Of a stretch of DNA of 64,000 nt, positions 8,485 through 41,764 are shown one piece after another. This DNA comes from an uncultured Gammaproteobacteria bacterium. GTDB lineage: Bacteria > Patescibacteriota > Microgenomatia > JALYQM01. Positions within the stretch are counted from its first letter, which is position 1. Each line of letters starts with the position of its first letter. Location: NCBI GenBank assembly GCA_964535655.1, contig CAZHTP010000003.1, forward strand, positions 1,186 through 65,185, given 5' to 3'. Under the pieces are notes generated by a model. It had not been told where the DNA came from. It did no database searches and saw nothing but the letters and a program-made list of their open reading frames with translations. The position numbers were made by a program, and so were the translations under genes.

Positions 8485-8565
8485 ACATTCTCCTTCTTAA
8501 ATTAGAATCTTAATAGTATATTAATAATACCACAAAAAAGGGATCCACTTTTATATTGCAAAACA

Positions 8566-9292: not shown

Positions 9293-9652
9293 ATGTCGAA
9301 ACTGGTGGTGATTGTTATACTGTTAATAATTATTTTACTGGGTGGTTATATTCTAGCGAAACCAATGACAGCGTCTACGCGGCAAGCGATAGCAGATTGT
9401 TACACTAAAAGTAAGATGATTTCTACTGTCGGTGCAGAAACAAGCAATACCTCAATCGAACAGTGTTCTAAATCGCACGACGCAATTCAGGCATTTAACA
9501 CTTGTATGAACCAAGTTAAAAGCGATTATGGAGGTATTAAAACGACAATTTCAATGACAGTGAGCCCATTGAATAAGGAATTTTCTATTGATACAATTCG
9601 AGATAACCACAACAAAACATGTGCTTCGTATCCGGAAATGAAAGTTATTTAA
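9293..9652 (+). CDS. Small secreted/membrane-anchored hypothetical protein
   Basis: N-terminal hydrophobic segment and four Cys. Strong AGGAGG RBS at 9276-9281. Confidence 0.4.
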   Translation: MSKLVVIVILLIIILLGGYILAKPMTASTRQAIADCYTKSKMISTVGAETSNTSIEQCSKSHDAIQAFNTCMNQVKSDYGGIKTTISMTVSPLNKEFSIDTIRDNHNKTCASYPEMKVI

Positions 9653-9653
9653 T

Positions 9654-10271
9654 ATGCGCTATATCGATCTTTCCCGTACTTTAGATGGTATGCTCCCTGT
9701 TTATCCGGGAGATCCCACGCCCATTATTACCCAAACTAACACTGTGGAAAAAGATGGGTTTACTTTAAGTAAAGTTAATTCGGGAACACATGTTGGTACG
9801 CATATGGATGCTCCATTTCACTTTATCGAAAGCGGTGAGAAGATGGATGCAATCTCTATTGAGCGTTTTTTTGGCCGGGGAATTCTACTTGATGGACGAG
9901 GCAAAACTATTTTTGATGAAACATTACTTGATGGAATAGATCTGAAAAAAGACGATATTGTTCTTATTGTTACAGATTGGGGTAATAGAATTAAGGAAAA
10001 AGCATATTTTACTGATTATCCAGAGATCACTTTATCGCTTGCCGAGCGATTTGTTGCAGCAATGGTATCAATTGTTGGAACAGACAGTGCGAGTCCCGAT
10101 CACGAGCCTTTTGCAACACATAAAAAATTATTAGGGAATGGGATCCTTATACTTGAGAATTTAGTAAATCTCGATCAACTACTTGAATGCTCAGAGTTTT
10201 CGGTTGTCGCATTACCTATAAAATACTCAACGGAAGCCGCACCGGCACGTGTCGTTGCAATACTCCCTTAA
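9654..10271 (+). CDS. Cyclase family protein (kynurenine formamidase-like)
   Basis: Signature 'GTHVGTHMDAPFHF'. 205 aa. Confidence 0.65.
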   Translation: MRYIDLSRTLDGMLPVYPGDPTPIITQTNTVEKDGFTLSKVNSGTHVGTHMDAPFHFIESGEKMDAISIERFFGRGILLDGRGKTIFDETLLDGIDLKKDDIVLIVTDWGNRIKEKAYFTDYPEITLSLAERFVAAMVSIVGTDSASPDHEPFATHKKLLGNGILILENLVNLDQLLECSEFSVVALPIKYSTEAAPARVVAILP

Positions 10272-14364: not shown

Positions 14365-16953
14365 TTATATTTCTATTTCGATAGGTATTTGTTGTTGTAC
14401 CTGAACTTGATTTTCTACTTCTATTCTGATTTGATCGTATATTTCGACCTCAGCATCTAATATTTCAAAGCTCACTATAAGTGTATATTCTGCTGGATAT
14501 TTTCCTGCTTTATCCCAACCTTCACGACCTCGTACGGCAATGCAAAAACCATCCGTCAGTTCGTAAGCTTTAATAACCGCCCAATCTTTTTGATTCACTC
14601 CCATAGTTCTTTTTAGGTTTCTAGTCTGTCCAGTATTTTCTTTATCTCCTATTACCCATTTAATCGAATGTCCATTTCGATCTTCATGGCCATCTTCTGA
14701 ATATTTAACACATTTTAGAAATTCTTCTGTACTTTCTCCAATATTACTACTAACCCAATCCACCCTATTTGATAAATACTTTTTGGGATTCTTTCTTGTT
14801 CTTCTTGGTTTAGCTTTATATGCAACTGTCACTTCAACCAGTATGTTGTATTCGTTACCTGCTCTTCTTATCTCTTCTGGTATTGGAATTTTGTAAACGT
14901 GCAGGTCTTTATTTAGTATTCTTATATTGCCCCTGCTATAAAGTGTGACACGACTATCGCTACTATAAAGTGCTCTGTCTAAAGAAGGGACACCATATCC
15001 TATTTTTCGTAGTACTGCCTGATACTGCGACTTATCAATATTTTGCGCCCAGTGAGGCCAGCGAGCAGAGTGTATTAATAATGCACGATACATCAAAGCG
15101 GATTCTTCAGGGTATTGACCTTCAATCTTTCCTAATATATGAGAAACTCTAGGGGTACTAATTGATGTTCCGATGAAGTCTCTTGAAGTTAATGGACCTG
15201 GTGGTGAGGACCTAACGCTTTCTAAACTAAGCTCATTGAGTTGTTGTAATGTTATTGGCTGTGCGTAGTTTACAGCATAACTTCCACCTATTTCTACAAC
15301 ATCTGGTTTGATCACTCCCCAAATTCCTGGACCTGATCTAGAAAATGGAGATGGGTCCCATTTACCGCCAAGAGATTTTAAGTTTTCATTTTGGAAATCT
15401 GCTAGACATATTGCTCCTACTGTAACTCCCATAAAAGCTTGTCCGGGATTTGCAGCTCTCGCTGCATCTTCCAATAAATATTCTGGGTAATTTTTTCCAT
15501 TACGGAGGTAGTTTAATATGCCCGGATTTAATGCCTGCTCTGAGAAAGAACTAATATTGCCGATGCTTTGAACGAACACTATATCATTGTCGTATGATAA
15601 TGAATCCATGCAAGCTGCCCACACAGACATTCTGCTTATTTTACACGCTATAGAGCTAGATATTGAATGATTAAAGATGCGGGTTCTTTGCTCAGTGAAT
15701 TTGTAGTATTTATCAACAATGTTGATTAATAATAGCGCTGGCTGGATAGTTTTTGGTATTACTCCATCTTTATTTAATACTCTTGCATTTTCTAACCAAA
15801 AGGGACTTTGAAAAATTCCATTTTTCGGTATTTCGTTATAGAATTGGATTGCCCCAGCGATTCTAGTTCCATGTCCACCATTTTCAATTTCGTCGCCGAC
15901 ACCATTACCATCTGGCAAAAAATTATAAGAAGCTTCCCTGACAATGGATTCTTTTAAGAGGACGTGCTCTTCATTTATTCCACTATCGATTACGCAGATT
16001 CTTGGTGCGTTTGCTCGTGGAGGTAAAACTGTTAATCCATTTTCGTATAGATTATTGATCTCATTATGATCGTTAATAATCACAATCTCTTCCGCTTCAG
16101 ATATCTCAAAAATATACGGGTAGTTTGCAGCGATATCTTTTAGTCCTTTCCCTGATATTTCAACACGGATGGAGAAACTATCATAAAACTCTACAGCGTT
16201 ATAGGTTTGGTTATCAACGATTTGTAGTATGTTTCCTTTATAGAAGTTCACCAACTGTTGCAATTGGTCTTCACGTTCGCTTTTTAGCTTGTCGTACTCT
16301 TGATATGCAAACGTAAGTTTTTCTTCCCATTTTTCTTTTTTTGCCTGAAATTCTTCTTCCGTTTCACTTTTAGTCTTTTCAATTTTGTTTTGAGGAGGAA
16401 TTGTTGTACCTGTACACTCTATAGAAATATCAACTGTGCAAGCAGTGTCATCTTTGATATGTATCCATTTTTTGTACAACTCTTCGGAAAGTATATGTTG
16501 CAGTTTGTCATGCGGGTTTATATCATATACTTTTGCTACTGACCCACTTTTCTTTTCGTTGTTCTCAAATGCCTTTATGCTCTTAGTTAGCTTGTTTAAC
16601 TCTATATCCTCAGTTGCAACGATTGCAAAACCTTCATCATACTCTGCCACGATTTCAAATCCAAAGGCGGAACGTAAAAACTCTAAATCTACGTCTTCTT
16701 CTATTTGCACAAGAGCTGAGTTTCCCTTTGGAAGTATTCTGCCTACTTCAGTATCACTTCTGTTGAGATTTTCTTCTTTCCAAGTATTACTAAGCATTTG
16801 CAACTTGCCCGTAAGCTCGAACGCATGATCTTTACGATTTTCTAAATTTTGTATTGTCTTTTCGTTTGATTTTCCTTGTGCACGAGGGAAGTATGCTCTA
16901 TCTTTGAGCACCATCTGAATGGGAAGATGATTTAGTTGTCGTTGTGTTGCCAT
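14365..16953 (-). CDS. Subtilisin-like serine protease (peptidase S8) with long N- and C-terminal extensions; ietS-like
   Basis: Catalytic triad motifs 'CVIDSGI' (Asp), 'HGTRIAG' (His), 'GTSISTPRVSHILG' (Ser). 862 aa. Overlaps the upstream AAA gene by 56 nt. Confidence 0.85.
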   Translation of the reverse strand: MATQRQLNHLPIQMVLKDRAYFPRAQGKSNEKTIQNLENRKDHAFELTGKLQMLSNTWKEENLNRSDTEVGRILPKGNSALVQIEEDVDLEFLRSAFGFEIVAEYDEGFAIVATEDIELNKLTKSIKAFENNEKKSGSVAKVYDINPHDKLQHILSEELYKKWIHIKDDTACTVDISIECTGTTIPPQNKIEKTKSETEEEFQAKKEKWEEKLTFAYQEYDKLKSEREDQLQQLVNFYKGNILQIVDNQTYNAVEFYDSFSIRVEISGKGLKDIAANYPYIFEISEAEEIVIINDHNEINNLYENGLTVLPPRANAPRICVIDSGINEEHVLLKESIVREASYNFLPDGNGVGDEIENGGHGTRIAGAIQFYNEIPKNGIFQSPFWLENARVLNKDGVIPKTIQPALLLINIVDKYYKFTEQRTRIFNHSISSSIACKISRMSVWAACMDSLSYDNDIVFVQSIGNISSFSEQALNPGILNYLRNGKNYPEYLLEDAARAANPGQAFMGVTVGAICLADFQNENLKSLGGKWDPSPFSRSGPGIWGVIKPDVVEIGGSYAVNYAQPITLQQLNELSLESVRSSPPGPLTSRDFIGTSISTPRVSHILGKIEGQYPEESALMYRALLIHSARWPHWAQNIDKSQYQAVLRKIGYGVPSLDRALYSSDSRVTLYSRGNIRILNKDLHVYKIPIPEEIRRAGNEYNILVEVTVAYKAKPRRTRKNPKKYLSNRVDWVSSNIGESTEEFLKCVKYSEDGHEDRNGHSIKWVIGDKENTGQTRNLKRTMGVNQKDWAVIKAYELTDGFCIAVRGREGWDKAGKYPAEYTLIVSFEILDAEVEIYDQIRIEVENQVQVQQQIPIEIEI

Positions 16954-17968
16954 TTATTTTTTTTGTACTAGGAGGGGCAATTTCATCCAACGCAATTGTC
17001 AAATGCGTATCGTTCACAGTACTACTCCCATCTAATATAGCCGTCTTTGCTGCATTTTGAGCTACAGATACAACGTCTGCAGCAGATAGCCCTTTTACTT
17101 TTTTAAATAATACGCCCCAATTAATTTTTTTGTTTATATTCAAAGCGGCCAAAGTTGTTTTCAGCAATTGTTCTATTTGTTGTGAGTCGGGTCTTTTGAT
17201 TTCAATTATATCATCAAAACGTCTATATATGGCCTTGTCTAGAGATCCCTCTAAGTTTGTGGTCGCTACAAGTAATCCTGCAGACTCATATTCATCTAAA
17301 AGCATTAGTAGCATATTAACTATCCTTTGTGTTTCTCCAACATCTGAACTACTAGTTCTCGACTTCGCTATAATGTCACATTCATCTAACAATAATACAC
17401 ATGGCGATTTTTGGCTTGCATCGAAAATTGATCTTAAATTTGCTGAAGTTTCACCAAAGTATGAGGAGATTAAACTATCAAATCTAACTTTTAATAGAGG
17501 AAGTCCAACATTCCAAGCTAGTCTCTCAGCTCCCATTGTCTTACCACACCCGGGTGGTCCATAAAGTAATATTTTTTTTCTTGGTTTTAAGTTATGCCTT
17601 GCTAGTCGATCTCTGGCAGCAAATTCTTTTTCTATCCGTTCAAATCTATCTTCAACATCCGATTGCAAGACCATGTAATGTCTTAAAACATGGGCCGGAA
17701 TAAAAGTAGCAAGAGGTTGGTTATTTCTTTGACTTTTAGGAAGTTCGAATAATTTTTTTTCACTTACTTCTGGATTTACATAGTACTTGGTGGTCAACCG
17801 ATTTTGAGCATCAGCAATTATTTTCTCAAGTTGCAAGGATAATTTCTTATGCCCTTTTTTCTTCTCTTCTTCAACGACGGCAGAAGCTATTTTTAATAAA
17901 CTTTCTGAATCGTTTGTCTCAATTGCTCTAAATAGTCTAGTAAGTAATATTGAATTCATATAAGCCAA
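16898..17968 (-). CDS. Classic AAA+ ATPase (CDC48/FtsH-type ATPase domain); ietA-like
   Basis: Walker A 'LLYGPPGCGKTM', Walker B 'VLLLDECD', second region of homology. 356 aa. Translationally coupled to the subtilase. Confidence 0.85.
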   Translation of the reverse strand: MAYMNSILLTRLFRAIETNDSESLLKIASAVVEEEKKKGHKKLSLQLEKIIADAQNRLTTKYYVNPEVSEKKLFELPKSQRNNQPLATFIPAHVLRHYMVLQSDVEDRFERIEKEFAARDRLARHNLKPRKKILLYGPPGCGKTMGAERLAWNVGLPLLKVRFDSLISSYFGETSANLRSIFDASQKSPCVLLLDECDIIAKSRTSSSDVGETQRIVNMLLMLLDEYESAGLLVATTNLEGSLDKAIYRRFDDIIEIKRPDSQQIEQLLKTTLAALNINKKINWGVLFKKVKGLSAADVVSVAQNAAKTAILDGSSTVNDTHLTIALDEIAPPSTKKINGNTTTTKSSSHSDGAQR

Positions 17969-22891: not shown

Positions 22892-24040
22892 TTATTCTTT
22901 CCGTTCTAGAACTCTAAATGATTGATAAAAGGTTTTTGATCTTTCTCTAAGATCCAATAGCATTTTATCATAACTGAATGTGCCATCTGGACGAAGCCCT
23001 CTATTATTTGAACGTATGTGAGTAGAAACTGCACTGTTATGAAAGCTTCTCCATTGCCACATCCCTTTATATACCTTGAATAACTCATCTTTTACTGCTG
23101 CAGTCTGTTCATCATTTGGTTCCTTTAAAAACCGGTCGGCAAGCGAGTCAGGCTGAGTGTGTTCTATCTCCTGTAATAAGGCTCTCTTTGAATTTGGAAG
23201 GTGCGGATAAATCTTGTTATGTAGATGCAGAGCATAATCAGCATCAATTCCGTACAATAACGCATCCGTGAGCGATATATTTATATCAGCAGATTGAGAT
23301 TTGGGAATTAAAGTCGTAGGGTTACCATGTTTATCAATCCATATAGTATCTCCCACTTCAAAAGGACTTGCAAAAATAGCTGTATCTATAAAATAACTAG
23401 GAGCAACCTTACCTCTTACTTCGAGCATTAATCTGGCAATGATTTCCATACTTTGTGCAGCTGTTTGCGCTCTTTCTCTCTGGACTGATTCTCCCCATCT
23501 TTCTTCTCCCAAAAGCCCTTGTATCGCACTTATAGCTTTTCTGAATTCGCGCACAAATTCTCCGTTATAGTAGATAAACCTTCTTTCGTCATCAGTACCT
23601 ACAAACGTTCTGGCGTCTTTCCCCGGTGGATTTAATTCTGTAAATGAATAGTACGTATCCCGTGGCGGGAGTCCAGTGCATTTTCCAAGCACAACAAGTT
23701 GTCTCACAAGTGCTGGCAATTGCTCATTTAAGTTTATACCTTTTACTGCTAATGAGCTTGCAAACATGCCAAGATCTCCAAGCGCTAGAGCAGCTCTATC
23801 TTCTGAATGGGCTGCTACCCCTCCTATAACGTCATCTGAAGGCAATAATTGCATACCCCGTCGTATTAGATCTGTTACGTCTACAGAAGCAGTATTGAAA
23901 ACGTGTAGTTCTTCAACCACGAAATGACTAAATGCTCCTAGAGGATATCGACTCTCATTATTTACAACTTCTGTAGCTCGTTGTTCTGGTAACATTTTAC
24001 CGCCTTTATGCGCTTTGTTGGACTCTGCGCCGTGATACAC
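22892..24040 (-). CDS. Hypothetical protein (tandem paralog A, function unknown)
   Basis: 382 aa. Shares 'PRDT..Y.....NP.G...R.F...D.ERRFI' and other blocks with 24006..25106. Confidence 0.5.
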   Translation of the reverse strand: MYHGAESNKAHKGGKMLPEQRATEVVNNESRYPLGAFSHFVVEELHVFNTASVDVTDLIRRGMQLLPSDDVIGGVAAHSEDRAALALGDLGMFASSLAVKGINLNEQLPALVRQLVVLGKCTGLPPRDTYYSFTELNPPGKDARTFVGTDDERRFIYYNGEFVREFRKAISAIQGLLGEERWGESVQRERAQTAAQSMEIIARLMLEVRGKVAPSYFIDTAIFASPFEVGDTIWIDKHGNPTTLIPKSQSADINISLTDALLYGIDADYALHLHNKIYPHLPNSKRALLQEIEHTQPDSLADRFLKEPNDEQTAAVKDELFKVYKGMWQWRSFHNSAVSTHIRSNNRGLRPDGTFSYDKMLLDLRERSKTFYQSFRVLERKE

Positions 24041-25106
24041 TTGTTAAATCTATAAGCCTTTGTAATATATCTGTTGTATATCCTCCACTGCCCAAGGAAC
24101 CTTCCTGTCTAATTGCCATATTATCATCCGCTACTTTCTTATGAGGAAATCGAAACTTTTGGATTGTATTGAGTAGATTTACTAATGCAGACACGCCAGG
24201 TATAGGTTCTCCTGATGCCGTTCGAGTTGCTCTCAGCTCTTCCTCTACTTTATTCAGAATTGACGCAGATCCTCTTTTACTCTCGGCAATCTGCCGTAAC
24301 TCCGGAGGTAAGTACTGAAGATTATCGTAAAAATAATGAGTATACTCAGGACTATCTATTATTGAGGATCCCCATAACAAATAATCAACGAGAATGACTG
24401 GCATTTGAGCACCCCCAGGACCTACATACTCTTTTCCTCCTATTACAAAAGTTGGAAAATAAGGACGTAATTCATAGGTAAAGACCTGCGGAGTAATTTT
24501 TCTTCGAACTTCAACTATTGAGCCGACCATGTTACTAAATCTTTCTTCCGCTTGCTTTACTTCATACGCGAATTGCTCATCATGGATCGATAAAGTAGAA
24601 GCTCTTACCAATGCTTCGATACTATGTGGCAACTCCTGCATTCCCAATCTAAAACTATCAATAAATATTCTTTCTTCTGGCTGGTCCGTGAAGAGCCTCA
24701 TTCTCGCGCCTTTAGGATTTCTGGGACCATACGTAAAGACTGTATCTCTTGGGACTTCATCTGTGCGCAATCCTAGTTCAATCAATTGATCTTCCAATCC
24801 TGGAACTGTCCTCGGATCTATACCGTGCGTTGCAATCGATCCTGCAAGGAACCCGAGATCGCGTAGGGATGCTCTTGCACTTAATATATCAATGCTTGTT
24901 AGTTGTTTGGACTTTAATACAAATTGAACGGTATTTGCGAATAAAGCTTCTATGTCGGCAGATCTGTTGACATTTGGTAATTTATTGCTCAAAAAATCAT
25001 CCGCTCTAAGTGGATCTAGCGCAGCTACTCTTTGGTCATCTTCTGTACATTTAACGTAGGTGTAAGCTTCTTGTGCTGTGGCCGTTTTAATATCTGGACT
25101 TAACAT
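24006..25106 (-). CDS. Hypothetical protein (tandem paralog B, function unknown)
   Basis: 366 aa. Paralogous to 22892..24040. Motifs 'VGPGGAQMP', 'EGSLGSGGYTTD'. Confidence 0.5.
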   Translation of the reverse strand: MLSPDIKTATAQEAYTYVKCTEDDQRVAALDPLRADDFLSNKLPNVNRSADIEALFANTVQFVLKSKQLTSIDILSARASLRDLGFLAGSIATHGIDPRTVPGLEDQLIELGLRTDEVPRDTVFTYGPRNPKGARMRLFTDQPEERIFIDSFRLGMQELPHSIEALVRASTLSIHDEQFAYEVKQAEERFSNMVGSIVEVRRKITPQVFTYELRPYFPTFVIGGKEYVGPGGAQMPVILVDYLLWGSSIIDSPEYTHYFYDNLQYLPPELRQIAESKRGSASILNKVEEELRATRTASGEPIPGVSALVNLLNTIQKFRFPHKKVADDNMAIRQEGSLGSGGYTTDILQRLIDLTSVSRRRVQQSA

Positions 25107-27896: not shown

Positions 27897-28496
27897 ATGT
27901 CCGCAAATATAATTCCTACAGATTCTCGGTATACTCCCCTCACCCAACAGCGTTGGTGTTGTGTACCGACATGTATCCAAATAGTCATGTTGCGACATTC
28001 GATTCCTCTCGTTTCAGCAGAACTAATCGGTTATCATATGGGATTAGTTGTTCCCAAAGATGAGCTGGTTTATTTCTGGAAAGGTAGAACCGGTGAAATG
28101 CCCCCTGCAGGGTACGGAACTCAGGCAGGTAAAGCGAAATATGGACCCAATGCAGTTTTTAAAAAACTTACTATTCCGCTTAAAATGAATTGGTCTTTAA
28201 TTAATAAATTCCCTACTATAAATTCGTTCTATGAATACTTAAAGAAATGCTCGTCTACCGATGCTGATGTATTAGTTTGCTATGACTGGGGAACTTTGTT
28301 TGATTCTGATTATCATGGAGGTCATGTTTGTGTCCTAGATATAGTGGATATTTCTAAAGGCGAAGTGCGGATTATTGACCCTGAGTATAAAGCATCAAAA
28401 TGGAAAGTTGTCTCAATTAATAAATTATATGAAGCAATGCTTTTTCATGGCAAAGAAAAAAGTGGTGGATTTTGGGAAATTTCGCTAAAAAGTTAA
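27897..28496 (+). CDS. Putative papain-like cysteine peptidase (C39-like)
   Basis: Candidate catalytic Cys in 'CCVPTCIQIVM' and His in 'YHGGHVCVLD', spaced about 100 aa apart. Confidence 0.35.
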   Translation: MSANIIPTDSRYTPLTQQRWCCVPTCIQIVMLRHSIPLVSAELIGYHMGLVVPKDELVYFWKGRTGEMPPAGYGTQAGKAKYGPNAVFKKLTIPLKMNWSLINKFPTINSFYEYLKKCSSTDADVLVCYDWGTLFDSDYHGGHVCVLDIVDISKGEVRIIDPEYKASKWKVVSINKLYEAMLFHGKEKSGGFWEISLKS

Positions 28497-29757: not shown

Positions 29758-29943
29758 ACTTTGTCATTTCCTAACTCACGATCTTAAGTAACCTTAAGTA
29801 TTATTTTACCATCCTGTTTAGTCGGACAGAAACTCCGCACTGGCACTAGACCCAAAAACTATGAAAAATTAGGGATGGGGTAGAAAAAATCAGTTTGGAT
29901 AAAAGAAGTACGAACAAGATCCAGCCACTGACCCCAAGTGGAT

Positions 29944-29969
29944 ACCGTTCAAAAACGGTCACTTTTTTT
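29944..29969 (+). terminator. Rho-independent terminator-like hairpin on the plus strand
   Basis: ACCGTT-caaa-AACGGT followed by CACTTTTTTT. No plus-strand CDS precedes it. Confidence 0.45.
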
Positions 29970-30322
29970 CTTAAAATTGTCTAAAAATTCTCTTATGGGT
30001 AGAGGATTGTTCGAGTGATGTTGTTCCATTTAAGTGTTTAAATTTACCTCGACAATCTGTAAACGGCATGGTTCTTCTTTTAAGAAAATAGCCATTTAAC
30101 CAGAGGTCAGCGTGCTCAAATGTGACAGGTACCTGGTAACTCGCCCACTTCCTGTCATTGCTCCACTATATGGCTCAATAGCCGACGGACTATTGTGGGT
30201 CTCAACTTTTCCGCAGATTGTTTGTCCGTCATAAAATCTAATTACTCCTTAATTATCTACAAATTAGGTTTGAATTTTATTTGTGATTTACATCACCTTA
30301 TCTCGATTCAATATTAGATATA

Positions 30323-30394
30323 ATGAGCTATTATATGAACCGCATTTCGTATGTCACAACAAACGGAAGTACCTGCTTTTGTACTACGCACTGA
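30323..30394 (+). CDS. Candidate 23-aa small peptide ORF (MSYYMNRISYVTTNGSTCFCTTH), possible RiPP precursor
   Basis: Cys/Thr-rich C-terminus, immediately at the 5' edge of the SPASM radical SAM gene. Speculative: no clear RBS, and it overlaps the annotated rSAM start in another frame. Confidence 0.15.
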   Translation: MSYYMNRISYVTTNGSTCFCTTH

Positions 30395-31712
30395 AAATTC
30401 TGGTGACTTACTGTGGAGTCATAGTCGAGACACCTATTTTTTTGTTTCTCAAGCTGCTCACACAACCGCAATAAGACAGGTTGCTCAAGGCGACTTATCG
30501 ATCGAAAATATTGACGACCCTCAGCTTCAAGCTGAACTGATGCAAATAGGATTTGATGGCTCACAAAAAACCCGAATAGTGGATAGCCCGATACCTGGTA
30601 GATTAAGCGCTCCGCTTGAAACATATTTTGATTACACTTGGGCGTGTAACTTACGATGCAGTTATTGTTATAATTTCGATGTTCCGCGGGCGACAACCTT
30701 ACCTTCACAACAAATCCGCCACGTATTTGCAGAGCTTGCACAAAATGGCGTGATGCGAACACACTTGGCTGGTGGAGAACCAATGATTAACCCTCGAGGA
30801 CTTCGTACCTATTTGGAGAGTGCGGCTGAGAATGGACTTCGCGCTTCAGTTAATTCGAATGGTACCTTGTTTACTGACGAAATTGCTGATTTTGTATTCG
30901 GACAAAATTTAGTCTCACTTACTTTTAGTGTTGATGGCCCTTCTTCACAGCTGCATGATCATTGGAGAGGCCCTGGTAGTTTCGATATTACAACGGCTGC
31001 GGTGAGGCGTGCCGTGGCGAAAAAGCAGGCTACTGGTAGCGATACACGAATTCAGATAAAGGCGGTATGGTTCCCTACAACATCTCATGAAGAACTCGCA
31101 GGACTGGTTGCTTTAGGAATTAATCTTGGTGCTGATGTTGTACAGTTTCACAACCCTGAACGGTGTACAAATCATCCGAATGGATACTACTCGAAGCTAG
31201 TACCGGATTATTACGACAAGCTTAGCTATATAACTCAGTTACAAGAGAAGTACGCTGACCGAATCGCTGTCTGGAATGTATGTAATCCACTTGCGACACA
31301 AATGCCAATTGGTATTCCTGGAGGGCATGGGTGTATCGGAGGGCAGGAGTTGATTGCGATTAATCCCGATGGAAGCATGTCTCCCTGCTTAATGCACCAC
31401 GCTAATCTCGGGAATTTATTTACTGATTGGGGTGGTTCTTTTTCTGATTTTTGGAGAAACTCTGAAGTATTGGCAGAATTCCAAGCAAAAGTACAAAGAG
31501 TTGATGCAACATGTATGAATTGCGCAGTGTATAGCGCCTGTCGCGGAGGTAGCAAAACGAGAGTGATCGCTGATAGTGGTAATGCATGGAAAGATGGTGC
31601 TCGAGATCCATTTTGCCCGGCAGATTATGCCCAGAACGCACGGATACCACTAACTCCAGTACCATCTAGCTCCAAAATATTACAAAGAATCTCAGTGGCA
31701 CATTCACTCTAG
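30351..31712 (+). CDS. Radical SAM / SPASM-domain protein with about 90-aa N-terminal extension (possible RRE-fused peptide maturase)
   Basis: 'CNLRCSYCYN' (CX3CX2C) at residues ~98-105. C-terminal Cys-rich SPASM region 'CMNCAVYSACRGG...CPADY'. GC visibly higher than flanks. Confidence 0.75.
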   Translation: MSQQTEVPAFVLRTENSGDLLWSHSRDTYFFVSQAAHTTAIRQVAQGDLSIENIDDPQLQAELMQIGFDGSQKTRIVDSPIPGRLSAPLETYFDYTWACNLRCSYCYNFDVPRATTLPSQQIRHVFAELAQNGVMRTHLAGGEPMINPRGLRTYLESAAENGLRASVNSNGTLFTDEIADFVFGQNLVSLTFSVDGPSSQLHDHWRGPGSFDITTAAVRRAVAKKQATGSDTRIQIKAVWFPTTSHEELAGLVALGINLGADVVQFHNPERCTNHPNGYYSKLVPDYYDKLSYITQLQEKYADRIAVWNVCNPLATQMPIGIPGGHGCIGGQELIAINPDGSMSPCLMHHANLGNLFTDWGGSFSDFWRNSEVLAEFQAKVQRVDATCMNCAVYSACRGGSKTRVIADSGNAWKDGARDPFCPADYAQNARIPLTPVPSSSKILQRISVAHSL

Positions 31713-31724
31713 TTGTAGGTTAAG

Positions 31725-32975
31725 ATGGAACGTATTAACTTAATAAATTTTTATCCTCCCCAGCGTATTGATCGTTATCCGACCCCACTTACACTTGGAG
31801 TTGCTCGGTTAGGAGCATATCTCTCGCATAGACAGCAGGAAGTTCGGATCATTAGCTTACCACTCGGAGAGGCGGCTCCGAACGATGTGCTAATGCGCGG
31901 TGATCCAACAATTGTCGGGTTCACTGTAAATTTCTGGGATAGAACACATGTCTTGCGGACCTTAGAGGAGATAAGAGCAGGTGGCTTCAATGGAGATATC
32001 CTGCTTGGTGGACCCGAGGCAGGTATTTTACGTCTTCAACAGACACCACTCCCGACCCCTGATAAAACGTTTATCGTGCCCTACGACGGTGAGCCAGCCA
32101 TGGATAGTTACCTTGATCGTCGTCATCTACTGCAGCGCAATGAAATGCAAGCTCTTCTTGCTACTCCAGTACGAATGCACGGCCGAGTAGCGCTACCTGT
32201 GGGACTAACGCTTTTTTCTCCCGCATTTCAGGAATTACTCACCTCTGATTTTCAACGAGATTCTTCTTATACCTGGTATGATACCGTGCGAGGATGTCCC
32301 TATACCTGCGGATATTGTGATCACGGCAGGAATAGGCGAAATGTCTCAGCATATCCAGAAGAGCATGTCGAAGAAGAAATCACGAATATAGGACGTAAAT
32401 ACCAAGATGCATTCGTAATAGATCCAATTATAGGAGGTGGAAATCCTCATGCGGCAGTACATCGACTTCGTCAATTTAATTCTTTAGCTCCCAGCACAGC
32501 TCTTGAGTATTATCTTCGACCTGAGATGATAACAGAAGAGGTAGTTGCTGCTGCGAAAGTGACCAATACTCGGAATATTTTCGTTGGATTACAAACACTC
32601 AACCCCGCTGTCCCTCATTGGCTGAGAAAGAATAATCCATCATCATTACCGCGAATTACTGAACTTTGTCAGGGTGCGCCGGTCACGGTTGAGTTAATTG
32701 TTGGTCTACCAGGTGACACACTTGAAGGACTAAAAGTAACACTGCGTCGTGTGGCTGAGGAACTACATCCGCGCCATATCGCTGCATATTCATTAAGTGT
32801 CTTGGATGGAACCCAGCTACGAGAAAACCTTGACGCACATGATTCAGAAATTTGGGTTGAGCGTAATCCAGAAACGCATCGAGCAACAGCATCTTCATCA
32901 TATTCTTCAGCTGATCTTCAAACAATGACTAGGTATGCTGCAGAATTTGTTGCTGAATATAACTTATTTTCTTGA
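31725..32975 (+). CDS. B12-binding-domain radical SAM protein (class B rSAM, putative methyltransferase)
   Basis: N-terminal Rossmann-like B12-binding region. 'VRGCPYTCGYCDHG' CX3CX2C variant. 416 aa. Confidence 0.6.
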   Translation: MERINLINFYPPQRIDRYPTPLTLGVARLGAYLSHRQQEVRIISLPLGEAAPNDVLMRGDPTIVGFTVNFWDRTHVLRTLEEIRAGGFNGDILLGGPEAGILRLQQTPLPTPDKTFIVPYDGEPAMDSYLDRRHLLQRNEMQALLATPVRMHGRVALPVGLTLFSPAFQELLTSDFQRDSSYTWYDTVRGCPYTCGYCDHGRNRRNVSAYPEEHVEEEITNIGRKYQDAFVIDPIIGGGNPHAAVHRLRQFNSLAPSTALEYYLRPEMITEEVVAAAKVTNTRNIFVGLQTLNPAVPHWLRKNNPSSLPRITELCQGAPVTVELIVGLPGDTLEGLKVTLRRVAEELHPRHIAAYSLSVLDGTQLRENLDAHDSEIWVERNPETHRATASSSYSSADLQTMTRYAAEFVAEYNLFS

Positions 32976-33792
32976 GATACATTTCGTATAATTCCGAATC
33001 TTCTTGCGTAGCTTCTTGTTGTTTGATTCTTTTATAGAAAAAACTTGCCCCAATCCAAGCACGTGCAAGCATTCCGGTTAAAATGGAGGAGGTGTTTAGT
33101 GGCTCTTGCCAATATCTTTGCAATTGCTGCAGATCAAACTGCTCCTCGGGCAAGTACAAATAGAAACACGACATAAATAAACAAGCAGCTTGGAAATCCG
33201 GTGGTGCGTATATAACGGCTTCGGCATCTACGAAAAATGCCTGGTTATTGTCAATTAAGATATTCCCTCTGTGCAGGTCATAATGTGTCAGTACAAGGTC
33301 TGAGGCGGACAAATACTGGTTCGTGTAAAGATAGTCACCAATTTGCGATAAATACTCATCTTCGATCACTCGTTCCTGACAATTTTTTATCAAATCGTGT
33401 AGCGTTTTACCTGAATGTGGCCTACTATTTTTAGCACTTTTTTTAAACTCTTTTACGACTGTGAAAATGGCTTGTGTCTGCGGATCACTAAGGGTGCCGT
33501 AACAATGCTTTCCTTGAAAGTAGGTCAGTATCTGTATGTATCTATTTTCACTACAACGTATAGTGCCTAATAACCGAGGTAATATATCTGGAGCGATATT
33601 TTTCAAGACATTTTTCTGGTGTTCTATCTCCCCTGAGGTTCGTTGCTTTAAATCTTTTATAACTAGTGTTTTACCAAAAATTGTTACGAAATAAACATCA
33701 GATGCTTTTGCTACTTGAGACTTTTCTATAGCAAAGAACTTTCTCTGCTTGTTAGCGTGCGGTTCTTTTTTGTATCTCATGGTCCAGCCCAT
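32929..33792 (-). CDS. Aminoglycoside-phosphotransferase/choline-kinase-like protein kinase
   Basis: Brenner motif 'HYDLHRGNILID' and 'FVDAE'. 287 aa. Confidence 0.55.
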   Translation of the reverse strand: MGWTMRYKKEPHANKQRKFFAIEKSQVAKASDVYFVTIFGKTLVIKDLKQRTSGEIEHQKNVLKNIAPDILPRLLGTIRCSENRYIQILTYFQGKHCYGTLSDPQTQAIFTVVKEFKKSAKNSRPHSGKTLHDLIKNCQERVIEDEYLSQIGDYLYTNQYLSASDLVLTHYDLHRGNILIDNNQAFFVDAEAVIYAPPDFQAACLFMSCFYLYLPEEQFDLQQLQRYWQEPLNTSSILTGMLARAWIGASFFYKRIKQQEATQEDSELYEMYLKKISYIQQQILQHT

Positions 33793-37925: not shown

Positions 37926-38630
37926 TTAAAAGTTTCCAAATGGATATTTTACTTTATTCGCTAACTTAAATTGGTTAAAAAAGAATAGTAGAGATAATAC
38001 TGAATACAAAGAAATCATGTAGACTAGACCATATTTTTTAAAGCGACGATCGGAAACATACACTGTTACCGGAAGAATTCCGTATTTCCCTTTATGAGAC
38101 ACCCTGCGAATTAACTCGATATCATCATAGGTATATTCCCTGTTAAATTTGCCGTGAGAATCAAATACTTCTTTTTTAATAATTATTCCACAGCCAGCAC
38201 CAGAAGGGCTAATTTTTTGAAACAAATAAAAAAGTCTATTAAAGAATATAAAGAATCCATTGATTAGCGGTATTGAGTTTATTGGAGTGTAACGAGGTAT
38301 GGCGATATCCAATTTTTTTTTCTCAAATTCAGTTACTATTTTTTCAATAAAACTACTAGTAACGTGTGTATCAGCGTCTAGGAAAATAAGTACTTCGCCC
38401 GTGGCTTCCTCTGCTCCGCTATTTCGTTGCTCAGCAACTTGAGGTGTTTTTTCAAGTAACTTTACCTTTCTGAATTGCCGTATAGCTGCTGTTGTCTGAT
38501 CGCGAGAATTTCCGTCTACTACAATAACTTCGTGTGGAGCAAAGGTTTGCTGTGATAGATCTGATAAGATTGTCGAAATATACTTTTCTTCATTTAGCGT
38601 TGGGATAATTACGCTTACTCTGTTACTCAT
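37926..38630 (-). CDS. Family 2 glycosyltransferase (carotenoid glycosyltransferase candidate)
   Basis: 'VSVIIPTLNEE', 'FLDADT' DXD. Last gene of the crt operon. Confidence 0.7.
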   Translation of the reverse strand: MSNRVSVIIPTLNEEKYISTILSDLSQQTFAPHEVIVVDGNSRDQTTAAIRQFRKVKLLEKTPQVAEQRNSGAEEATGEVLIFLDADTHVTSSFIEKIVTEFEKKKLDIAIPRYTPINSIPLINGFFIFFNRLFYLFQKISPSGAGCGIIIKKEVFDSHGKFNREYTYDDIELIRRVSHKGKYGILPVTVYVSDRRFKKYGLVYMISLYSVLSLLFFFNQFKLANKVKYPFGNF

Positions 38631-39472
38631 TTTCCTCCCATAATTAATAGATATGTTACAAAGCCTGCTATGTTATTTATGTAGGGATATCCCCAATATA
38701 CTTTACTGATATTACTACTAGGTTTAACTAAAAGCACTAAAGGAATACTTGGATAAATTAAAGTGAGTAAATTAAAAGGGTTAAGAACTGATTTATATAT
38801 AAGTATCGCACTAAAAATTCCCCAGAAAATTGTACATACTATAAGACTTTTACTTTTTCCTAAAAAAACCGCTGAAGTGATGATCTTAGCTTTGCTGTCC
38901 GGCTCGATATCTGGAATCGCTGAGAATAAATGCATAGCAAAAGCCCAACTTGCGAAAGCTACTATAAGCATGATCTCTGGAAGATGTCTTGTCGCTTGTA
39001 CATAGCCAATGATGCCAGGAAGGATATATAGGATATTGGAAAGGAAGTCAAAAAAAGGACGTGATTTAAAGCGAACTGGTGGGGCGCTATAGCAATAGCT
39101 TAGTAGTACAAATAATAGAAACAACAATTTAAGTAGTAGGTTACTTTGAGTAACTGCTATCGTTGCGCTAAGAATTGTAGTTATCATGAGAATGTTGCGC
39201 AGATATAGCTTCTGGGAACTTTGAAGTAACAGTTCTTTATCTTTTTTTTTGGGGTTAAGCACATCTGTATCACTATCAAAATAATCGTTGATACCATATA
39301 AAAATATATTTGCGATAAAGAGAAAATATGTTACATTCATAATAAAATTTAGGCTTGTGTATGATTCGATACTACGAATCCCCGCTGAAAATCCAATCAT
39401 GTACGTACCACCTAAATATAACCAAAAACGCGGTCTTGAAAGCTTAACCAGATCGTTAAAACTAAATCTCAT
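38627..39472 (-). CDS. UbiA-family prenyltransferase (lycopene elongase-like)
   Basis: Asp-rich 'NDYFDSDTD' and second 'DIEPD' motif. 8-9 TM segments. Overlaps crtB and GT2. Confidence 0.6.
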   Translation of the reverse strand: MRFSFNDLVKLSRPRFWLYLGGTYMIGFSAGIRSIESYTSLNFIMNVTYFLFIANIFLYGINDYFDSDTDVLNPKKKDKELLLQSSQKLYLRNILMITTILSATIAVTQSNLLLKLLFLLFVLLSYCYSAPPVRFKSRPFFDFLSNILYILPGIIGYVQATRHLPEIMLIVAFASWAFAMHLFSAIPDIEPDSKAKIITSAVFLGKSKSLIVCTIFWGIFSAILIYKSVLNPFNLLTLIYPSIPLVLLVKPSSNISKVYWGYPYINNIAGFVTYLLIMGGK

Positions 39473-40301
39473 AGCGATTTCCTTTTAAAGTATTTACTAT
39501 AATTTGAATTAGAACTTTACTCTTTGATGGTTTTAGGCTCTTTTTGTATATGAGAAATGGGTTTTTTGAAATTTTCTCGATTGTCCATTTATACATATCT
39601 GAAGCGGTCTGAATTGGTATACTGTAGCGAACAGGAATGTATTTAAAACCTTTTTCAGCTTCATTTTGCCAGCACCAGTAGTGGTCAATTTGCAGGGCCA
39701 TGAATTTTTTAAAAAGATTTTCATTGTCTCTTGCTGTCTGTTCACTTAACTCTTTGAGTCCTATATTTTTCATTTCTTCTACGGGGAGATATTGTCTTCC
39801 TAGTTGAATATCTTCTGCAATATCACGAATAAAGTTAGCATACTGCATTGACTTTCCGAGAAGTTGAGCGTAACGATACGATTCTGGACTTAACGAAAGT
39901 ATTTTTGCCATAAACAAACCGATTACTTCTGCTGAACCGTACATGTATTTTTCGGAGTCTTGAAGCGTCATACAAGGAATGGCCTGCAAATCTGATTCCA
40001 TACTGTATAGAAATGATCTGACCCATTCGTCATTAAACCCGTATTTTTTAGAGAGTTGAAAAAAATTAGAAATAGTTGGATTATTCGTGTATTTGTTGCT
40101 CAGAGCATTTTCCGTTTCTTGTTTAAAATTTAAAAATTCTACTTTTTTTTGCGGGATTGTGTCGACTAAATTATCTGCCTCTCTGACATATCGATATAGT
40201 GTAAATACATCAGATTTAACTGGCTCGGGAAAAAAGAGACTCGAATAAAAGTAAGTCCTGCTTCCATTTTTGAATGTTTTATATGCGTCTTTGTCGATCA
40301 T
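39462..40301 (-). CDS. crtB: Phytoene/squalene synthase family (phytoene synthase)
   Basis: Isoprenoid synthase fold. 'YMYGSAEVIGLFM', 'IRDIAEDIQLGRQYLP'. Confidence 0.75.
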   Translation of the reverse strand: MIDKDAYKTFKNGSRTYFYSSLFFPEPVKSDVFTLYRYVREADNLVDTIPQKKVEFLNFKQETENALSNKYTNNPTISNFFQLSKKYGFNDEWVRSFLYSMESDLQAIPCMTLQDSEKYMYGSAEVIGLFMAKILSLSPESYRYAQLLGKSMQYANFIRDIAEDIQLGRQYLPVEEMKNIGLKELSEQTARDNENLFKKFMALQIDHYWCWQNEAEKGFKYIPVRYSIPIQTASDMYKWTIEKISKNPFLIYKKSLKPSKSKVLIQIIVNTLKGNRYEI

Positions 40302-41764
40302 ATCTTTTTTTCAATTTCCTTAGCGACAACTGTAGAAGAAATAATGGTCATTGGTAAGCCAATACCTGGATGAGTATATTGACCAGTGTAAAAAAGATTC
40401 CTTACTTTTTTACTCTGATGCTTAGGGCGAAAAATTGCGCTCTGCATTAATGTATGGGTAAGCCCTAATGCCGTTCCTTTATATGCGTTATACCGGCTAG
40501 TAAAATCGTTATGCGCAAATATTTTTTTAAACACGATGTGTGACTTTAGATCCTCTTCGAGTAAGTTTTCAAGGTGCGTCATTATTTTTGTGTAATATTT
40601 TTCGCGAATTTCTTCAGTATCTTCAAGTCCTGGAGCGACTGGAACTAAGATAAAAATATTTTCTGATCCAGCTGGCGCCACTGTTGAGTCAGTTTTTGAT
40701 GGACAGCATACATAGTAAGAAGGGCGATCAGGCCATTCCGGTTTTTCAAAAATTGAATCAAAATGTTTAATCCAATCATTCTCTAAGAATAAATTATGAT
40801 GATTAAGTTTTGGTAATTTCTTGTTAACACCTAAGTAGATAATAAATGCTGAAGGAGCAATAGTTTTTTTCTTCCAATATTTTTCCGGATATGTTTGATA
40901 TTTTTTCTCGAGTAATTTTGTTTCTGCAAAAGCATAATCTGCATTAACTACTACATAGTCGGCACTATATTCTTGGTCTTTAGTAATTACTTTTTTTGCA
41001 ACCCCGTTTTCCACCACTATTTTCTGTACTTCTTGATTGTAGTTAATCGCAACTCCTTGTTCTTTGGCAACCGAAACTAGCCCTTCTACAATCTTCCCGA
41101 ATCCTCCCATTGGATAAAAGACGCCTTGATTAAAATCAATATGTGCCATTAGTGCATATAAGGCAGGGGTATTTTTAGGTGTACCTCCAAGAAAAACAAT
41201 GTTATATTGCAAAATCTTCCTTACTTTGTCTGTCGAAAAATATCGTCGAGTGTATTTATCGATGCTATCAAAAATGTGTAAGGTTGATCCTTCTTTAGCA
41301 AGCTTTGCATCAAAAAAATCAAAAATTGAACCATACTCCCGATACAAGAAGCGTTCCATTGATACATTAAATTGATATTCTGCAATTTTTAAATAGTCTT
41401 TTAGTTTCTCTGCACTTCCCGATTCTAGTGATTCAAATAATTGTAGGTTTTTTTCTAAAGACGCACTTATATCTACGCTTTCAGTTTTATTAAAGAAAAT
41501 TCGGTAGGAAGGGTCGAGTCGAACTGGATCGTAGTAATCATTCTCAGTTTTGCCAAATTCAGCAAAATATCTTTGAAATACTTCACGAATAAGATACCAC
41601 GATGGGCCCATGTCAAAACGGAATCCATTTTCCTCAAAAACAGATGCCCGACCTCCGGCACTTTCATTCTTTTCTAAAATGGTTACTTGATGTCCTTGTT
41701 TTGCCAGTAAAGCAGCGGCAGAAAGCCCTCCGAAACCTGCACCGATTACAATACACTTTTTCAT
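40298..41764 (-). CDS. crtI: Phytoene desaturase (FAD-dependent)
   Basis: N-terminal 'KKCIVIGAGFGGLSAAALLAKQGHQVTILEKNESAGGRA'. 488 aa. Confidence 0.8.
   Translation of the reverse strand: MKKCIVIGAGFGGLSAAALLAKQGHQVTILEKNESAGGRASVFEENGFRFDMGPSWYLIREVFQRYFAEFGKTENDYYDPVRLDPSYRIFFNKTESVDISASLEKNLQLFESLESGSAEKLKDYLKIAEYQFNVSMERFLYREYGSIFDFFDAKLAKEGSTLHIFDSIDKYTRRYFSTDKVRKILQYNIVFLGGTPKNTPALYALMAHIDFNQGVFYPMGGFGKIVEGLVSVAKEQGVAINYNQEVQKIVVENGVAKKVITKDQEYSADYVVVNADYAFAETKLLEKKYQTYPEKYWKKKTIAPSAFIIYLGVNKKLPKLNHHNLFLENDWIKHFDSIFEKPEWPDRPSYYVCCPSKTDSTVAPAGSENIFILVPVAPGLEDTEEIREKYYTKIMTHLENLLEEDLKSHIVFKKIFAHNDFTSRYNAYKGTALGLTHTLMQSAIFRPKHQSKKVRNLFYTGQYTHPGIGLPMTIISSTVVAKEIEKKI

Follow-up and report, generated by a model that had tools for sequence, protein, structure and literature searches.

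In albomycin biosynthesis the seryl-tRNA synthetase (SerRS) AbmK supplies an aminoacyl-adenylate and also provides immunity, and the radical S-adenosylmethionine (SAM) enzyme AbmJ and the carbamoyltransferase AbmE act in the same pathway (PMC9032320). AbmJ tailors the nucleoside, and the abm cluster contains a kinase homologue, with a HAD hydrolase present in related clusters (PMC9032320, PMC8323819). Immunity to aminoacyl-nucleotides is ascribed to the GNAT enzyme MccE2, the carboxypeptidase MccF, a HAD hydrolase and aminoacyl-tRNA synthetase copies carried in the clusters (PMC8323819). Here we describe a radical SAM cassette in a 64,000-nucleotide stretch of contig CAZHTP010000003.1 (assembly GCA_964535655.1, positions 1,186 to 65,185 of the forward strand), which we call the window, from an uncultured bacterium. 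Its core encodes a radical SAM/SPASM enzyme, a second radical SAM enzyme of apparent B12 type and an APH-like kinase, and it stands beside a gene for prolyl-tRNA synthetase (ProRS). We propose, tentatively and with a probability of roughly 0.35, that the cassette is a mobile pathway for a proline-related translation inhibitor, prolyl- or aminoacyl-nucleotide-like and aimed at proline charging, with the ProRS as supplier or immunity determinant and the kinase and phosphatase as a protecting and deprotecting pair.

The comparison with albomycin-type clusters (abm, associated with the SerRS inhibitor SB-217452) shows both the attraction and the limits of this proposal. As in those clusters, an aminoacyl-tRNA synthetase gene is part of the operon; the cassette further encodes two radical SAM enzymes, a kinase and a phosphatase of the HAD or another type, joined in Streptomyces by a carbamoyltransferase. 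However, the synthetase is a ProRS and not a SerRS, and pyridoxal phosphate-dependent enzymes, an AbmF-like ligase and a siderophore non-ribosomal peptide synthetase (NRPS) are missing. One radical SAM enzyme is of the SPASM type with a predicted RRE fold and the other of the B12 type, and as far as tested neither is related to AbmJ or AbmM. The kinase resembles APH enzymes and not dCK, and the ProRS of the window is not visibly divergent from the housekeeping ProRSs of the candidate phyla radiation (CPR).

The cassette recurs as a unit. We clustered all open reading frames (ORFs) of 32 loci, the window among them (related loci are denoted L with a number), and found the SPASM enzyme in 32, the B12-type enzyme in 30 and the kinase in 30. 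The three genes are adjacent in about 30 of the 32 loci and across phyla, in line with a first-pass annotation, made from the sequence alone, that had read them as a functional cassette; the positions it gave for the two plus-strand radical SAM genes and the convergent kinase likewise agree with the ORF coordinates and with Pfam. Its description of a compact three-gene cassette needs revision. The real unit is larger, covering eight genes between 28493 and 35534 (Table 1): two NUDIX genes, a pyrophosphatase (PPase)-like gene, the SPASM and B12-type radical SAM genes, the kinase, the ProRS and a HAD-like phosphatase. The HAD-like gene is the first of the HAD-ProRS-kinase run and lies 16 nt upstream of the ProRS gene, whose end runs 41 nt into the start of the kinase gene, and the three therefore form one tight operon, flanked across the radical SAM genes by the NUDIX and PPase-like genes. 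The kinase gene converges on the second radical SAM gene with an overlap of 47 nt at its 3' end. The order HAD-ProRS-kinase is kept in L002.

Table 1. Features of the cassette and its flanks, with positions in the window.
Feature	Positions	Strand	Evidence or remark
NUDIX hydrolase a, 151 aa	28493..28948	-	Pfam NUDIX E 7.9e-9; weak tblastn match to L005 NUDIX
NUDIX hydrolase b, 141 aa	28963..29388	-	Pfam NUDIX E 3.4e-11
Truncated family-I pyrophosphatase-like protein, 116 aa	29407..29757	-	Pfam Pyrophosphatase E 3e-9; divergent from SPASM gene
Divergent intergenic spacer, 593 bp	29758..30350		Promoter-like sites and one terminator-like hairpin
23-aa ORF	30323..30394	+	Chance ORF, outside the system
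Radical SAM/SPASM enzyme, 453 aa	30351..31712	+	PF04055 and PF13186
Second radical SAM enzyme, class-B-like, 416 aa	31725..32975	+	PF04055, cluster motif CPYTCGYC
APH-like kinase, 287 aa	32929..33792	-	Pfam APH (PF01636) 28.5 bits
Prolyl-tRNA synthetase without INS editing domain, 426 aa	33752..35032	-	TIGR00409 361.9 bits
HAD-like phosphatase, 161 aa	35049..35534	-	Pfam HAD_2 weak, E 0.0022

The core recurs in loci from at least five phyla, in Patescibacteria, archaea, gut Firmicutes, Alphaproteobacteria and Streptomyces. The SPASM protein belongs to a small family with sharp bounds, whose members come from Streptomyces and Kitasatospora, from Patescibacteria and from metagenome-assembled genomes (MAGs) of Halodesulfurarchaeum, Aenigmarchaeota, Alphaproteobacteria and gut Bacilli and Clostridia; about 34 full-length relatives with 33-51% identity were found among 5.8 billion clusters, and about 23 clusters at 50% identity with an end-to-end match among 1.84 billion representative proteins. 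Beyond the family, identity falls to the mycofactocin maturases at 27%. We found no curated family, PADLOC system or paper that describes the cassette, which is rare and undescribed and is built from known enzyme superfamilies; literature on ProRS together with radical SAM clusters, on phosmidosine biosynthesis, on PDC-M51 and on radical SAM enzymes of Saccharibacteria likewise yielded nothing of relevance. Some copies appear to carry broken genes, which may reflect decay or errors of sequencing. The B12-type gene is split into three ORFs in L030 (5694-7201) and L032 (11385-12892), and the Patescibacteria locus L034 (1893-5900) has the B12-type gene twice and a SPASM gene interrupted by an in-frame stop. 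A distant SPASM relative in L059 (1-2470), MftC-like and with the same N-terminal domain, lies downstream of another SPASM radical SAM gene and upstream of genes for a MazG-like nucleoside triphosphate pyrophosphohydrolase and a PIG-L/LmbE-like protein.

The SPASM enzyme has the expected signatures. The cysteines C99-x3-C103-x2-C106 follow an N-terminal extension of about 90 residues, and the SPASM domain contains C328, C346, C388, C391, C397 and C422, matching the CX3CX2C motif at about residue 98 and the cysteine-rich C-terminus noted in the first-pass annotation. Pfam Radical_SAM (PF04055; E 4.8e-18, 66.3 bits) and SPASM (PF13186; 31 bits against a cut-off of 21.5) both score above their gathering thresholds, and together with the motif place the protein among the radical SAM/SPASM enzymes. 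Across the family alignment C99, C103, C106, C328, C346, C391, C397 and C422 are invariant, and the fourth cysteine of the CX2CX5CX3C motif is replaced in many members by Ser or Arg. All NCBIfam models score below their cut-offs, the best being GeoRSP, with 98 against 400 bits. The MftC equivalog scores 90.2 bits, short of the at least 265 required of mycofactocin maturases, and the viperin equivalog NF038283 scores 56.5 bits, short of at least 180. The anaerobic sulfatase-maturating enzyme (anSME) model TIGR03942 is not among the best 25 of the 77 sub-threshold matches. We therefore rejected anSME, mycofactocin, viperin, GeoRSP, SCM and the other curated families as identities, all being far below cut-off. 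An anSME had been the alternative named earlier for this gene; besides the missing cut-off score, neither the neighbourhood in the window nor the related loci contained a sulfatase, and the mycofactocin partner genes (mftA, B, D, E and F) were not seen there either.

Structural comparison gives a more specific picture. The AlphaFold2 (AF2) model of the SPASM enzyme is confident, with a predicted local distance difference test (pLDDT) score of 92.4, and as a whole protein it is closest to SuiB (E 5e-19 over about 470 aligned columns), SkfB, CteB, anSME and PqqE. Modelled alone, the N-terminal 80 or so residues gave a pLDDT of 92 and Foldseek matches that were non-significant. A separate test at the fold level was positive for the fold of the recognition element (RRE) of ribosomally synthesised and post-translationally modified peptides (RiPPs), with the MccB peptide clamp among the fold matches. 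The domain is thus predicted to have an RRE fold, at the level of fold only; an assignment at the sequence level was rejected, with no match to PqqD or RRE profiles or to any solved RRE. On its surface R13, E15, W22, S23 and Y29 vary little or not at all.

A second feature is the extreme C-terminus, which reads ...(F/L)xx(I/V)x(V/L)xHSL-COOH in the family and ...ISVAHSL-COOH in the window (31680-31709, residues 444-453). Of 33 cassette SPASM proteins, archaeal and actinobacterial ones among them, 32 end in HSL and that of L023 in HAL. Two paralogous SPASM genes found in these loci lack the tail, and so do the more distant relatives with the same N-terminal domain. It follows a variable linker, and the model places a confident strand at 444-448 with low confidence in the last three residues. 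The tail might bind the RRE domain in cis, coordinate an Fe-S cluster or serve as a substrate. No separate peptide with an HSL-type C-terminus was found: 33 of the 34 motif matches are the C-termini of SPASM proteins and the remaining one is due to chance.

These observations are also what one would look for in a peptide- or protein-directed maturation system, a real if doubtful possibility and the one to which we give most weight after the antimetabolite proposal. In such a system the SPASM and B12-type enzymes would modify the C-terminus of an unlinked substrate, or the enzyme's own ...x(I/V)x(V/L)xHSL tail, the kinase and a phosphoserine-phosphatase-like domain would act on a serine, and the outcome would be a protein-derived cofactor or a small molecule cut free from a peptide scaffold. 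The structural matches support this, as do the nearest named families, which are MftC, GeoRSP and other peptide maturases. A precursor gene is present in no locus, yet the protein's own C-terminus is kept after a variable linker with its modelled strand, and the invariant surface residues of the N-terminal domain would fit an invariant ligand. MftC, at 27% identity the nearest named relative, shares the SPASM architecture; in the cassette the predicted RRE-fold module is fused and not separate. Unlike the mycofactocin system, however, the cassette lacks MftA, MftD, MftE and MftF, scores 90 bits against 265, and has its own -HSL C-terminus and a pairing with a B12-type enzyme and a kinase. Likewise SuiB, CteB, SkfB and TigE, which are the best whole-protein structural matches and have the domain order of RRE, radical SAM and SPASM that is predicted for the cassette enzyme, differ in that identity is only 15-18%, the window contains no precursor gene, leader peptidase or dedicated exporter, and no locus has a precursor. 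The conserved core has no protease, and a tail-derived product would therefore generally not be released. In favour of a peptide substrate, Streptomyces loci contain an M16 peptidase pair and L029 has S66 and S51 peptidases. The HSL tail could also be a mere ligand or lid of an auxiliary Fe-S cluster, whose fourth cysteine is often Ser or Arg.

A more radical version would make the SPASM enzyme its own substrate scaffold, with the HSL tail docking in cis on the fused RRE-fold domain and the chemistry taking place on that C-terminus. By analogy with borosins the protein might be a self-modifying radical SAM enzyme. Alternatively, as a reusable scaffold of the pearlin type, its terminal carboxylate might be activated by the kinase, a ProRS-derived proline (as Pro-tRNA or Pro-AMP) appended, and the product tailored by the radical SAM enzymes and released. 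If true, this would account at once for the RRE fold and the invariant tail, for the kinase, for the recurring ProRS and for the missing precursor, and the cassette would no longer be a mere variant of synthetase-linked radical SAM tailoring. We nevertheless regard it as a long shot.

For the second radical SAM enzyme Pfam detects only PF04055, and no PF02310 domain is found in the window copy, at E-values up to 0.01. The orthologues in L004, L005, L009 and L010 do match PF02310, and the N-terminal 170 or so residues of the window protein are homologous to the B12-binding domain of the orthologues, with conserved GGPE and GEGE-like motifs. Its cobalamin-binding nature is therefore probable by homology, from the orthologues and the conserved N-terminal domain. 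The earlier assignment as a B12-binding class B radical SAM enzyme holds directly for the radical SAM part, with its CPYTCGYC motif, and probably, through the orthologues, for the B12 domain. The protein matches TokK, CysS and KedN5 weakly.

The second enzyme also matches PDC-M51A, a component of a candidate defence system in PADLOC (E 1.9e-29; the B12-type enzymes score 97-143 bits), and NUDIX genes match PDC-S07. This raises the question of whether the cassette is a viperin-like anti-phage system, in which the radical SAM enzymes would turn a nucleoside triphosphate into a chain terminator or toxic analogue and the kinase, phosphatases and NUDIX proteins would set its phosphorylation state. 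The nucleotide-handling genes nearby, a weak similarity of the SPASM enzyme to pVip models, and the neighbours of the cassette in L002, a GmrSD gene, a Schlafen-like gene and a DUF2726 gene, would suit such a role. However, only one component of PDC-M51 is matched: neither the SPASM enzyme nor the kinase, the phosphatases or the ProRS corresponds to another, and identity with that system was rejected. With the viperin score so low, and with the ProRS link and the RRE fold left unexplained, we consider defence improbable. The family has no relatives on the viral contigs of IMG/VR, which is neutral for a defence role and led us to discard a phage origin.

The first-pass annotation had proposed a RiPP, with a 23-residue ORF at the 5' edge of the SPASM gene as the precursor. 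The ORF exists (MSYYMNRISYVTTNGSTCFCTTH) and has two cysteines, next to a gene for a radical SAM/SPASM enzyme with a predicted RRE fold. However, 20 ORFs with 20 or more residues overlap 29758-30400 and this is only one of them, no Shine-Dalgarno sequence precedes it, it overlaps the SPASM start out of frame, and a promoter-like site at 30287-30315 would begin transcription at about its own ATG. An all-against-all comparison of 2537 ORFs of 15-90 residues from 30 related loci, in which peptides shorter than 15 residues lay outside the range, found no small-ORF family common to different lineages; only near-identical antisense ORFs of Streptomyces clustered. The 23-residue ORF has no relative in any locus compared, and the check for a conserved short ORF in homologous loci, suggested at the outset, found none in 31. 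In the nearest relative, L002, the gap upstream of the SPASM gene is only 93 nt and the 593-bp spacer is not conserved. The core genes abut or overlap in many loci, with only 0-100 nt around them. The minus-strand ORF that had been given 27 residues at about 30153-30233 in fact has 25 and lies at 30155-30232 (MTDKQSAEKLRPTIVRRLLSHIVEQ); AAGGAG stands 13 nt upstream, the same spacing as for the ProRS gene, and the ORF has no relative in the other loci. Both ORFs were rejected as precursors, as unconserved, as part of the background of 20 ORFs and, for the 23-residue ORF, as lacking a Shine-Dalgarno sequence. There is accordingly no co-located precursor gene conserved among the related loci, the mark of a classical RiPP cluster, and a compact RiPP in which the 23-residue ORF is crosslinked by the SPASM enzyme, methylated and phosphorylated is contradicted by the comparative data and very improbable indeed. 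The rest of the spacer was as first described, with a terminator-like hairpin and T-run at 29944-29959 (one site in the scan against 0.5 expected) and no long ORF. No Rfam match was found in it at E-values up to 1, and a riboswitch or non-coding RNA was therefore rejected.

The kinase points in a different direction. Pfam APH (PF01636) matches above its cut-off of 23.2 bits, as the earlier call of a convergent APH/choline-kinase-fold enzyme would suggest, and APH is matched by 18 of 22 kinase family members. K46, which would bind ATP, and the catalytic residues D172, N177 and D189 are invariant in all 22, placing the protein with the APH and eukaryotic-like kinase folds by score and by catalytic residues. 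Against the PDB the kinase profile is closest to APH(2'') (3ham, E 2.5e-7), followed by spectinomycin phosphotransferase and amicoumacin kinase, and protein kinases score at least 1000-fold worse. In most relatives the kinase is a fusion of about 460 residues with an N-terminal His_Phos_1 domain bearing an RHGxS motif, which is absent from the window kinase. The closest matches of this domain are a metal-independent phosphoserine phosphatase (4ij5, E 7e-26), PhoE, fructose-2,6-bisphosphatase and CobC. Where the kinase is unfused, in the window, L002, L005 and L024, a separate phosphatase is present, and most loci have one kinase and two phosphatases. Acid-phosphatase or HAD genes occupy the HAD position in L002, L005, L009 and L026, and a Y_phosphatase3 protein is found in nine Firmicute loci.

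Kinase/phosphatase pairs such as AmiN/AmiO for amicoumacin and StrA/StrK for streptomycin serve antibiotic producers in self-protection. The cassette resembles these pairs in coupling an APH-fold kinase to a phosphatase, and its kinase profile matches amicoumacin kinase and APH enzymes; it differs in usually combining both activities, by means of the His_Phos_1 domain, in a single polypeptide. The phosphoserine phosphatase match favours action on a serine, as in the peptide-directed alternative set out above. The kinase profile, in contrast, favours small-molecule kinases, and two phosphatases together with NUDIX, PPase, CYTH, MazG and NDK neighbours suit nucleotides better than phosphoserine. 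NUDIX genes accompany the cassette in eight loci, and PPase-like genes in the window, L029 and L005. The window PPase-like protein shares 65% identity with the N-terminal part of a PPase-S51 peptidase fusion directly upstream of the cassette in L029. CYTH and NDK-like genes are found in Streptomyces loci, and a MazG-like gene in L028 (7526-7837) as well as beside the distant relative. A thioether or sacti-type crosslink, as first proposed, is conceivable; together these accessory genes point to nucleotide and aminoacyl chemistry rather than a classical RiPP.

Some loci add genes that recall immunity. In L029 the operon directly upstream of the cassette (7159-9760) encodes an MccF-like S66 peptidase (PDB 5f9m, E 5e-98; MccF, 3e-20), the PPase-S51 fusion and a GNAT acetyltransferase, a set that by analogy resembles immunity genes against aminoacyl-nucleotides. 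The Streptomyces loci contain a TauD dioxygenase, CYTH and NDK-like proteins, a carbamoyltransferase, the M16 peptidase pair and exporters. The comparison with microcin C is informative here, as a synthetase-directed logic is plausible for the cassette, the S66 peptidase and GNAT of L029 have counterparts there, and the MccB peptide clamp appeared among the fold matches of the N-terminal domain. However, the cassette has no MccB/ThiF-like nucleotidyl transferase and no MccA-like ORF, and the S66 and GNAT genes occur in one locus only.

The ProRS of the window matches the equivalog TIGR00409 above its cut-off of 306.7 bits, together with PF00587 and PF03129, and is of the bacterial type. Aligned to the Staphylococcus aureus ProRS (5znj) it keeps the class II motifs, and the INS editing domain alone is missing. 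It shares about 60-68% identity with Saccharibacteria and other CPR ProRSs; the closest of these (65-68%) stand alone in ordinary contexts without the cassette, and identity to the cassette ProRS of L002 is 67%. The PyrD protein of the window is most like proteins of Patescibacteria (Levybacteria). The ProRS is therefore of the type native to the host and may be the only copy in its genome. A ProRS gene is nearby in 12 of the 32 loci, and the linked enzymes belong to at least five separate lineages with less than 46% identity between them, and so the link must have arisen or persisted many times. The L008 enzyme contains INS, and the Aenigmarchaeota locus L005 has split ProRS-like ORFs of the archaeal type.

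In two loci the ProRS appears to move with the cassette. In L008 the SPASM, B12-type, kinase and ProRS genes are exactly bracketed by direct repeats of 2991 bp, 99.6% identical (4603-7593 and 14385-17374), each holding an MvdD-type ATP-grasp gene and two small genes; the repeats could reflect a true duplication, a mobile unit or an artefact of metagenome assembly. In L027 (6019-17608) a cwlD-like amidase gene is split, with about 10.7 kb between its halves carrying a NUDIX gene, a MobA/VirD2 relaxase, the radical SAM core, a Y-phosphatase and an INS-less ProRS. From its gene content this insert looks like an integrative mobilisable element. The break point (...GTPDEG/VSLLH) recurs in L032 (14941-15269). 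The cwlD-like gene is intact in L030 (9250-10053, 267 aa), and L030 carries the cassette just upstream of it, which clouds the insertion picture. Taken together, the L027 insert and the L008 repeats indicate that the ProRS travels as cargo and is an extra copy in those two loci.

It is possible, if unlikely, that the ProRS is a partner of a different kind, and that the cassette alters tRNA(Pro), prolyl-tRNA or ProRS itself, by methylation and a radical step with phosphorylation as a switch, beside its native proS partner. The adjacent ProRS is host-type in CPR, archaeal in L005 and INS-containing in L008, as co-location with a native partner predicts. The truncated Rel genes upstream of the cassette in L006, L022 and L031, and the IleRS and FemAB-like genes that adjoin the lone SPASM gene of L011, would also fit a role in translation, and the RRE fold is a winged helix that could bind RNA. 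However, in 31 loci the cassette has no tRNA gene beside it, no EF-P (efp) gene is nearby and no known tRNA-modifying radical SAM family is matched. The spread is patchy and mobile, including the relaxase-borne copy with its own ProRS, unlike that of a housekeeping modification, and the Streptomyces copies sit among tailoring and export genes. Two related candidates were rejected on the same findings: a pyl-like cassette for genetic-code expansion, with no tRNA gene next to any of the 31 loci, and EF-P modification.

The genes just mentioned deserve description. In three loci of Firmicutes the cassette is directly preceded by the gene for a truncated Rel (HD_4, RelA_SpoT and TGS domains, about 480 residues) that lacks the C-terminal domains usual in such proteins, at 6507-7946 in L006, 1776-3218 in L022 and 7047-8495 in L031. 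The L011 gene (39-6078) is a lone family member with the HSL tail, without the B12-type enzyme or the kinase, between IleRS and FemAB-like genes; a run of five tRNA genes is close by and one tRNA gene is beside the SPASM gene. In L004 (1080-6603) the cassette is adjoined by a second set comprising a 54-residue ORF, a SPASM-type radical SAM gene (28% identical), a class II aminoacyl-tRNA synthetase-like gene (tRNA-synt_2, 447 aa) and a further radical SAM gene, followed by NRPS genes. This second set is another pairing of radical SAM and synthetase genes.

The proposed origin of the two radical SAM genes by horizontal acquisition had been drawn from their GC content. Sliding GC confirms the rise itself, with 0.44-0.50 in 500-nt windows starting at 30500-32250 against about 0.32-0.39 in the flanks. 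The two genes have GC1 values of 0.54 and 0.61 and GC2 values of 0.46 and 0.44 (GC at the first and second codon positions). At third positions (GC3) they have 0.337 and 0.312 (z = 0.7 and 0.1), where the mean for 67 ORFs of the window is 0.309 with a standard deviation of 0.039. The excess is confined to codon positions 1 and 2 and is a matter of amino-acid composition, the proteins being rich in Ala, Gly, Arg and Pro, and not a signature of foreign DNA. As their GC3 is ordinary, GC is no sign of recent transfer. The kinase and ProRS genes have a slightly raised GC3, with z about 2.

We return to the proline-related antimetabolite. What we observe is the gene content and its conservation, the operon structure, the intact catalytic motifs, mobility that includes the ProRS, and no linked precursor gene. 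The type of kinase, the excess of phosphatases, the nucleotide-handling neighbours and the mobile ProRS are clues to small-molecule, nucleotide or aminoacyl-nucleotide chemistry, and by analogy the S66 and GNAT genes of L029 and the Streptomyces carbamoyltransferase may be counted as pointing to such chemistry with immunity. From these we infer what class of substrate is used, in which order the steps run, and what the product and its target are; a product like phosmidosine, a prolyl-AMP mimic, would be one candidate. In our scheme the APH-like kinase would phosphorylate a substrate or intermediate, as a binding handle, for self-protection, or both. The SPASM enzyme would then abstract hydrogen from a C-H bond by radical chemistry, leading to oxidation or decarboxylation or to the formation of a C-C or C-X bond, and the B12-type enzyme would add a methyl group or rearrange the carbon skeleton. 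The phosphate would be removed by a phosphatase, namely the kinase-fused histidine phosphatase in most relatives and the separate HAD-like protein in the window. NUDIX, PPase-like, CYTH, MazG and NDK-type neighbours would process or detoxify nucleotide polyphosphate forms. The co-transcribed ProRS would supply activated proline, serve as an insensitive or extra copy of the target, or both, as AbmK does for albomycin.

Several observations weigh against this scheme. The SPASM enzyme resembles a peptide maturase in the predicted RRE fold of its N-terminal domain, its structural matches to SuiB, SkfB and CteB and its MftC-like nearest named relatives. The window ProRS is of the ordinary CPR type, could be the sole housekeeping copy and shows no sign of resistance, and about 20 of the 32 loci have no ProRS. 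The NUDIX, PPase, S66 and GNAT neighbours are sporadic, the last two being confined to a single locus, and the core contains no adenylating or nucleotidyl-transfer enzyme. We also found no literature on the cassette and no known product.

Several other genes of the window may be of interest. A protein of 199 residues (27897-28496, plus strand) with no Pfam match converges on the NUDIX genes at the edge of the cassette, and its QQRWCCVPTC...GGHVCVLD pattern recalls a papain-like cysteine peptidase or acyltransferase. A carotenoid-type cluster (37926-41764, minus strand) encodes a UbiA prenyltransferase, a GT2 glycosyltransferase and a CrtI/CrtD desaturase that scores above its equivalog cut-off, and two PrnB-like genes lie in tandem at 22892-25106 (minus strand); given that PyrD and ProRS point to a Patescibacteria genome, both finds are unusual. 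At 14365-17968 (minus strand) a gene for an S8 peptidase of 862 residues, which weakly matches the anti-phage peptidase IteS (111 bits against a cut-off of 900), adjoins one for an AAA ATPase of 356 residues, and the two may be a defence-like pair.

If the antimetabolite proposal is correct, the cassette would be a natural and genetically compact route to a ProRS-directed antimetabolite, for which we found no bacterial biosynthetic pathway in the literature searched. As it occurs in episymbiotic Patescibacteria, archaea, gut Firmicutes and Streptomyces, it may then also have a bearing on competition or host manipulation by ultra-small symbionts and gut bacteria. Whatever the product, the SPASM enzymes form a new subfamily with a predicted RRE fold, a strictly conserved C-terminal tail, a B12-type radical SAM partner and, usually, a phosphatase-kinase fusion. 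This subfamily is a well-bounded and expressible target for enzymology, and shows that mining guided by aminoacyl-tRNA synthetases can reach beyond Actinobacteria.

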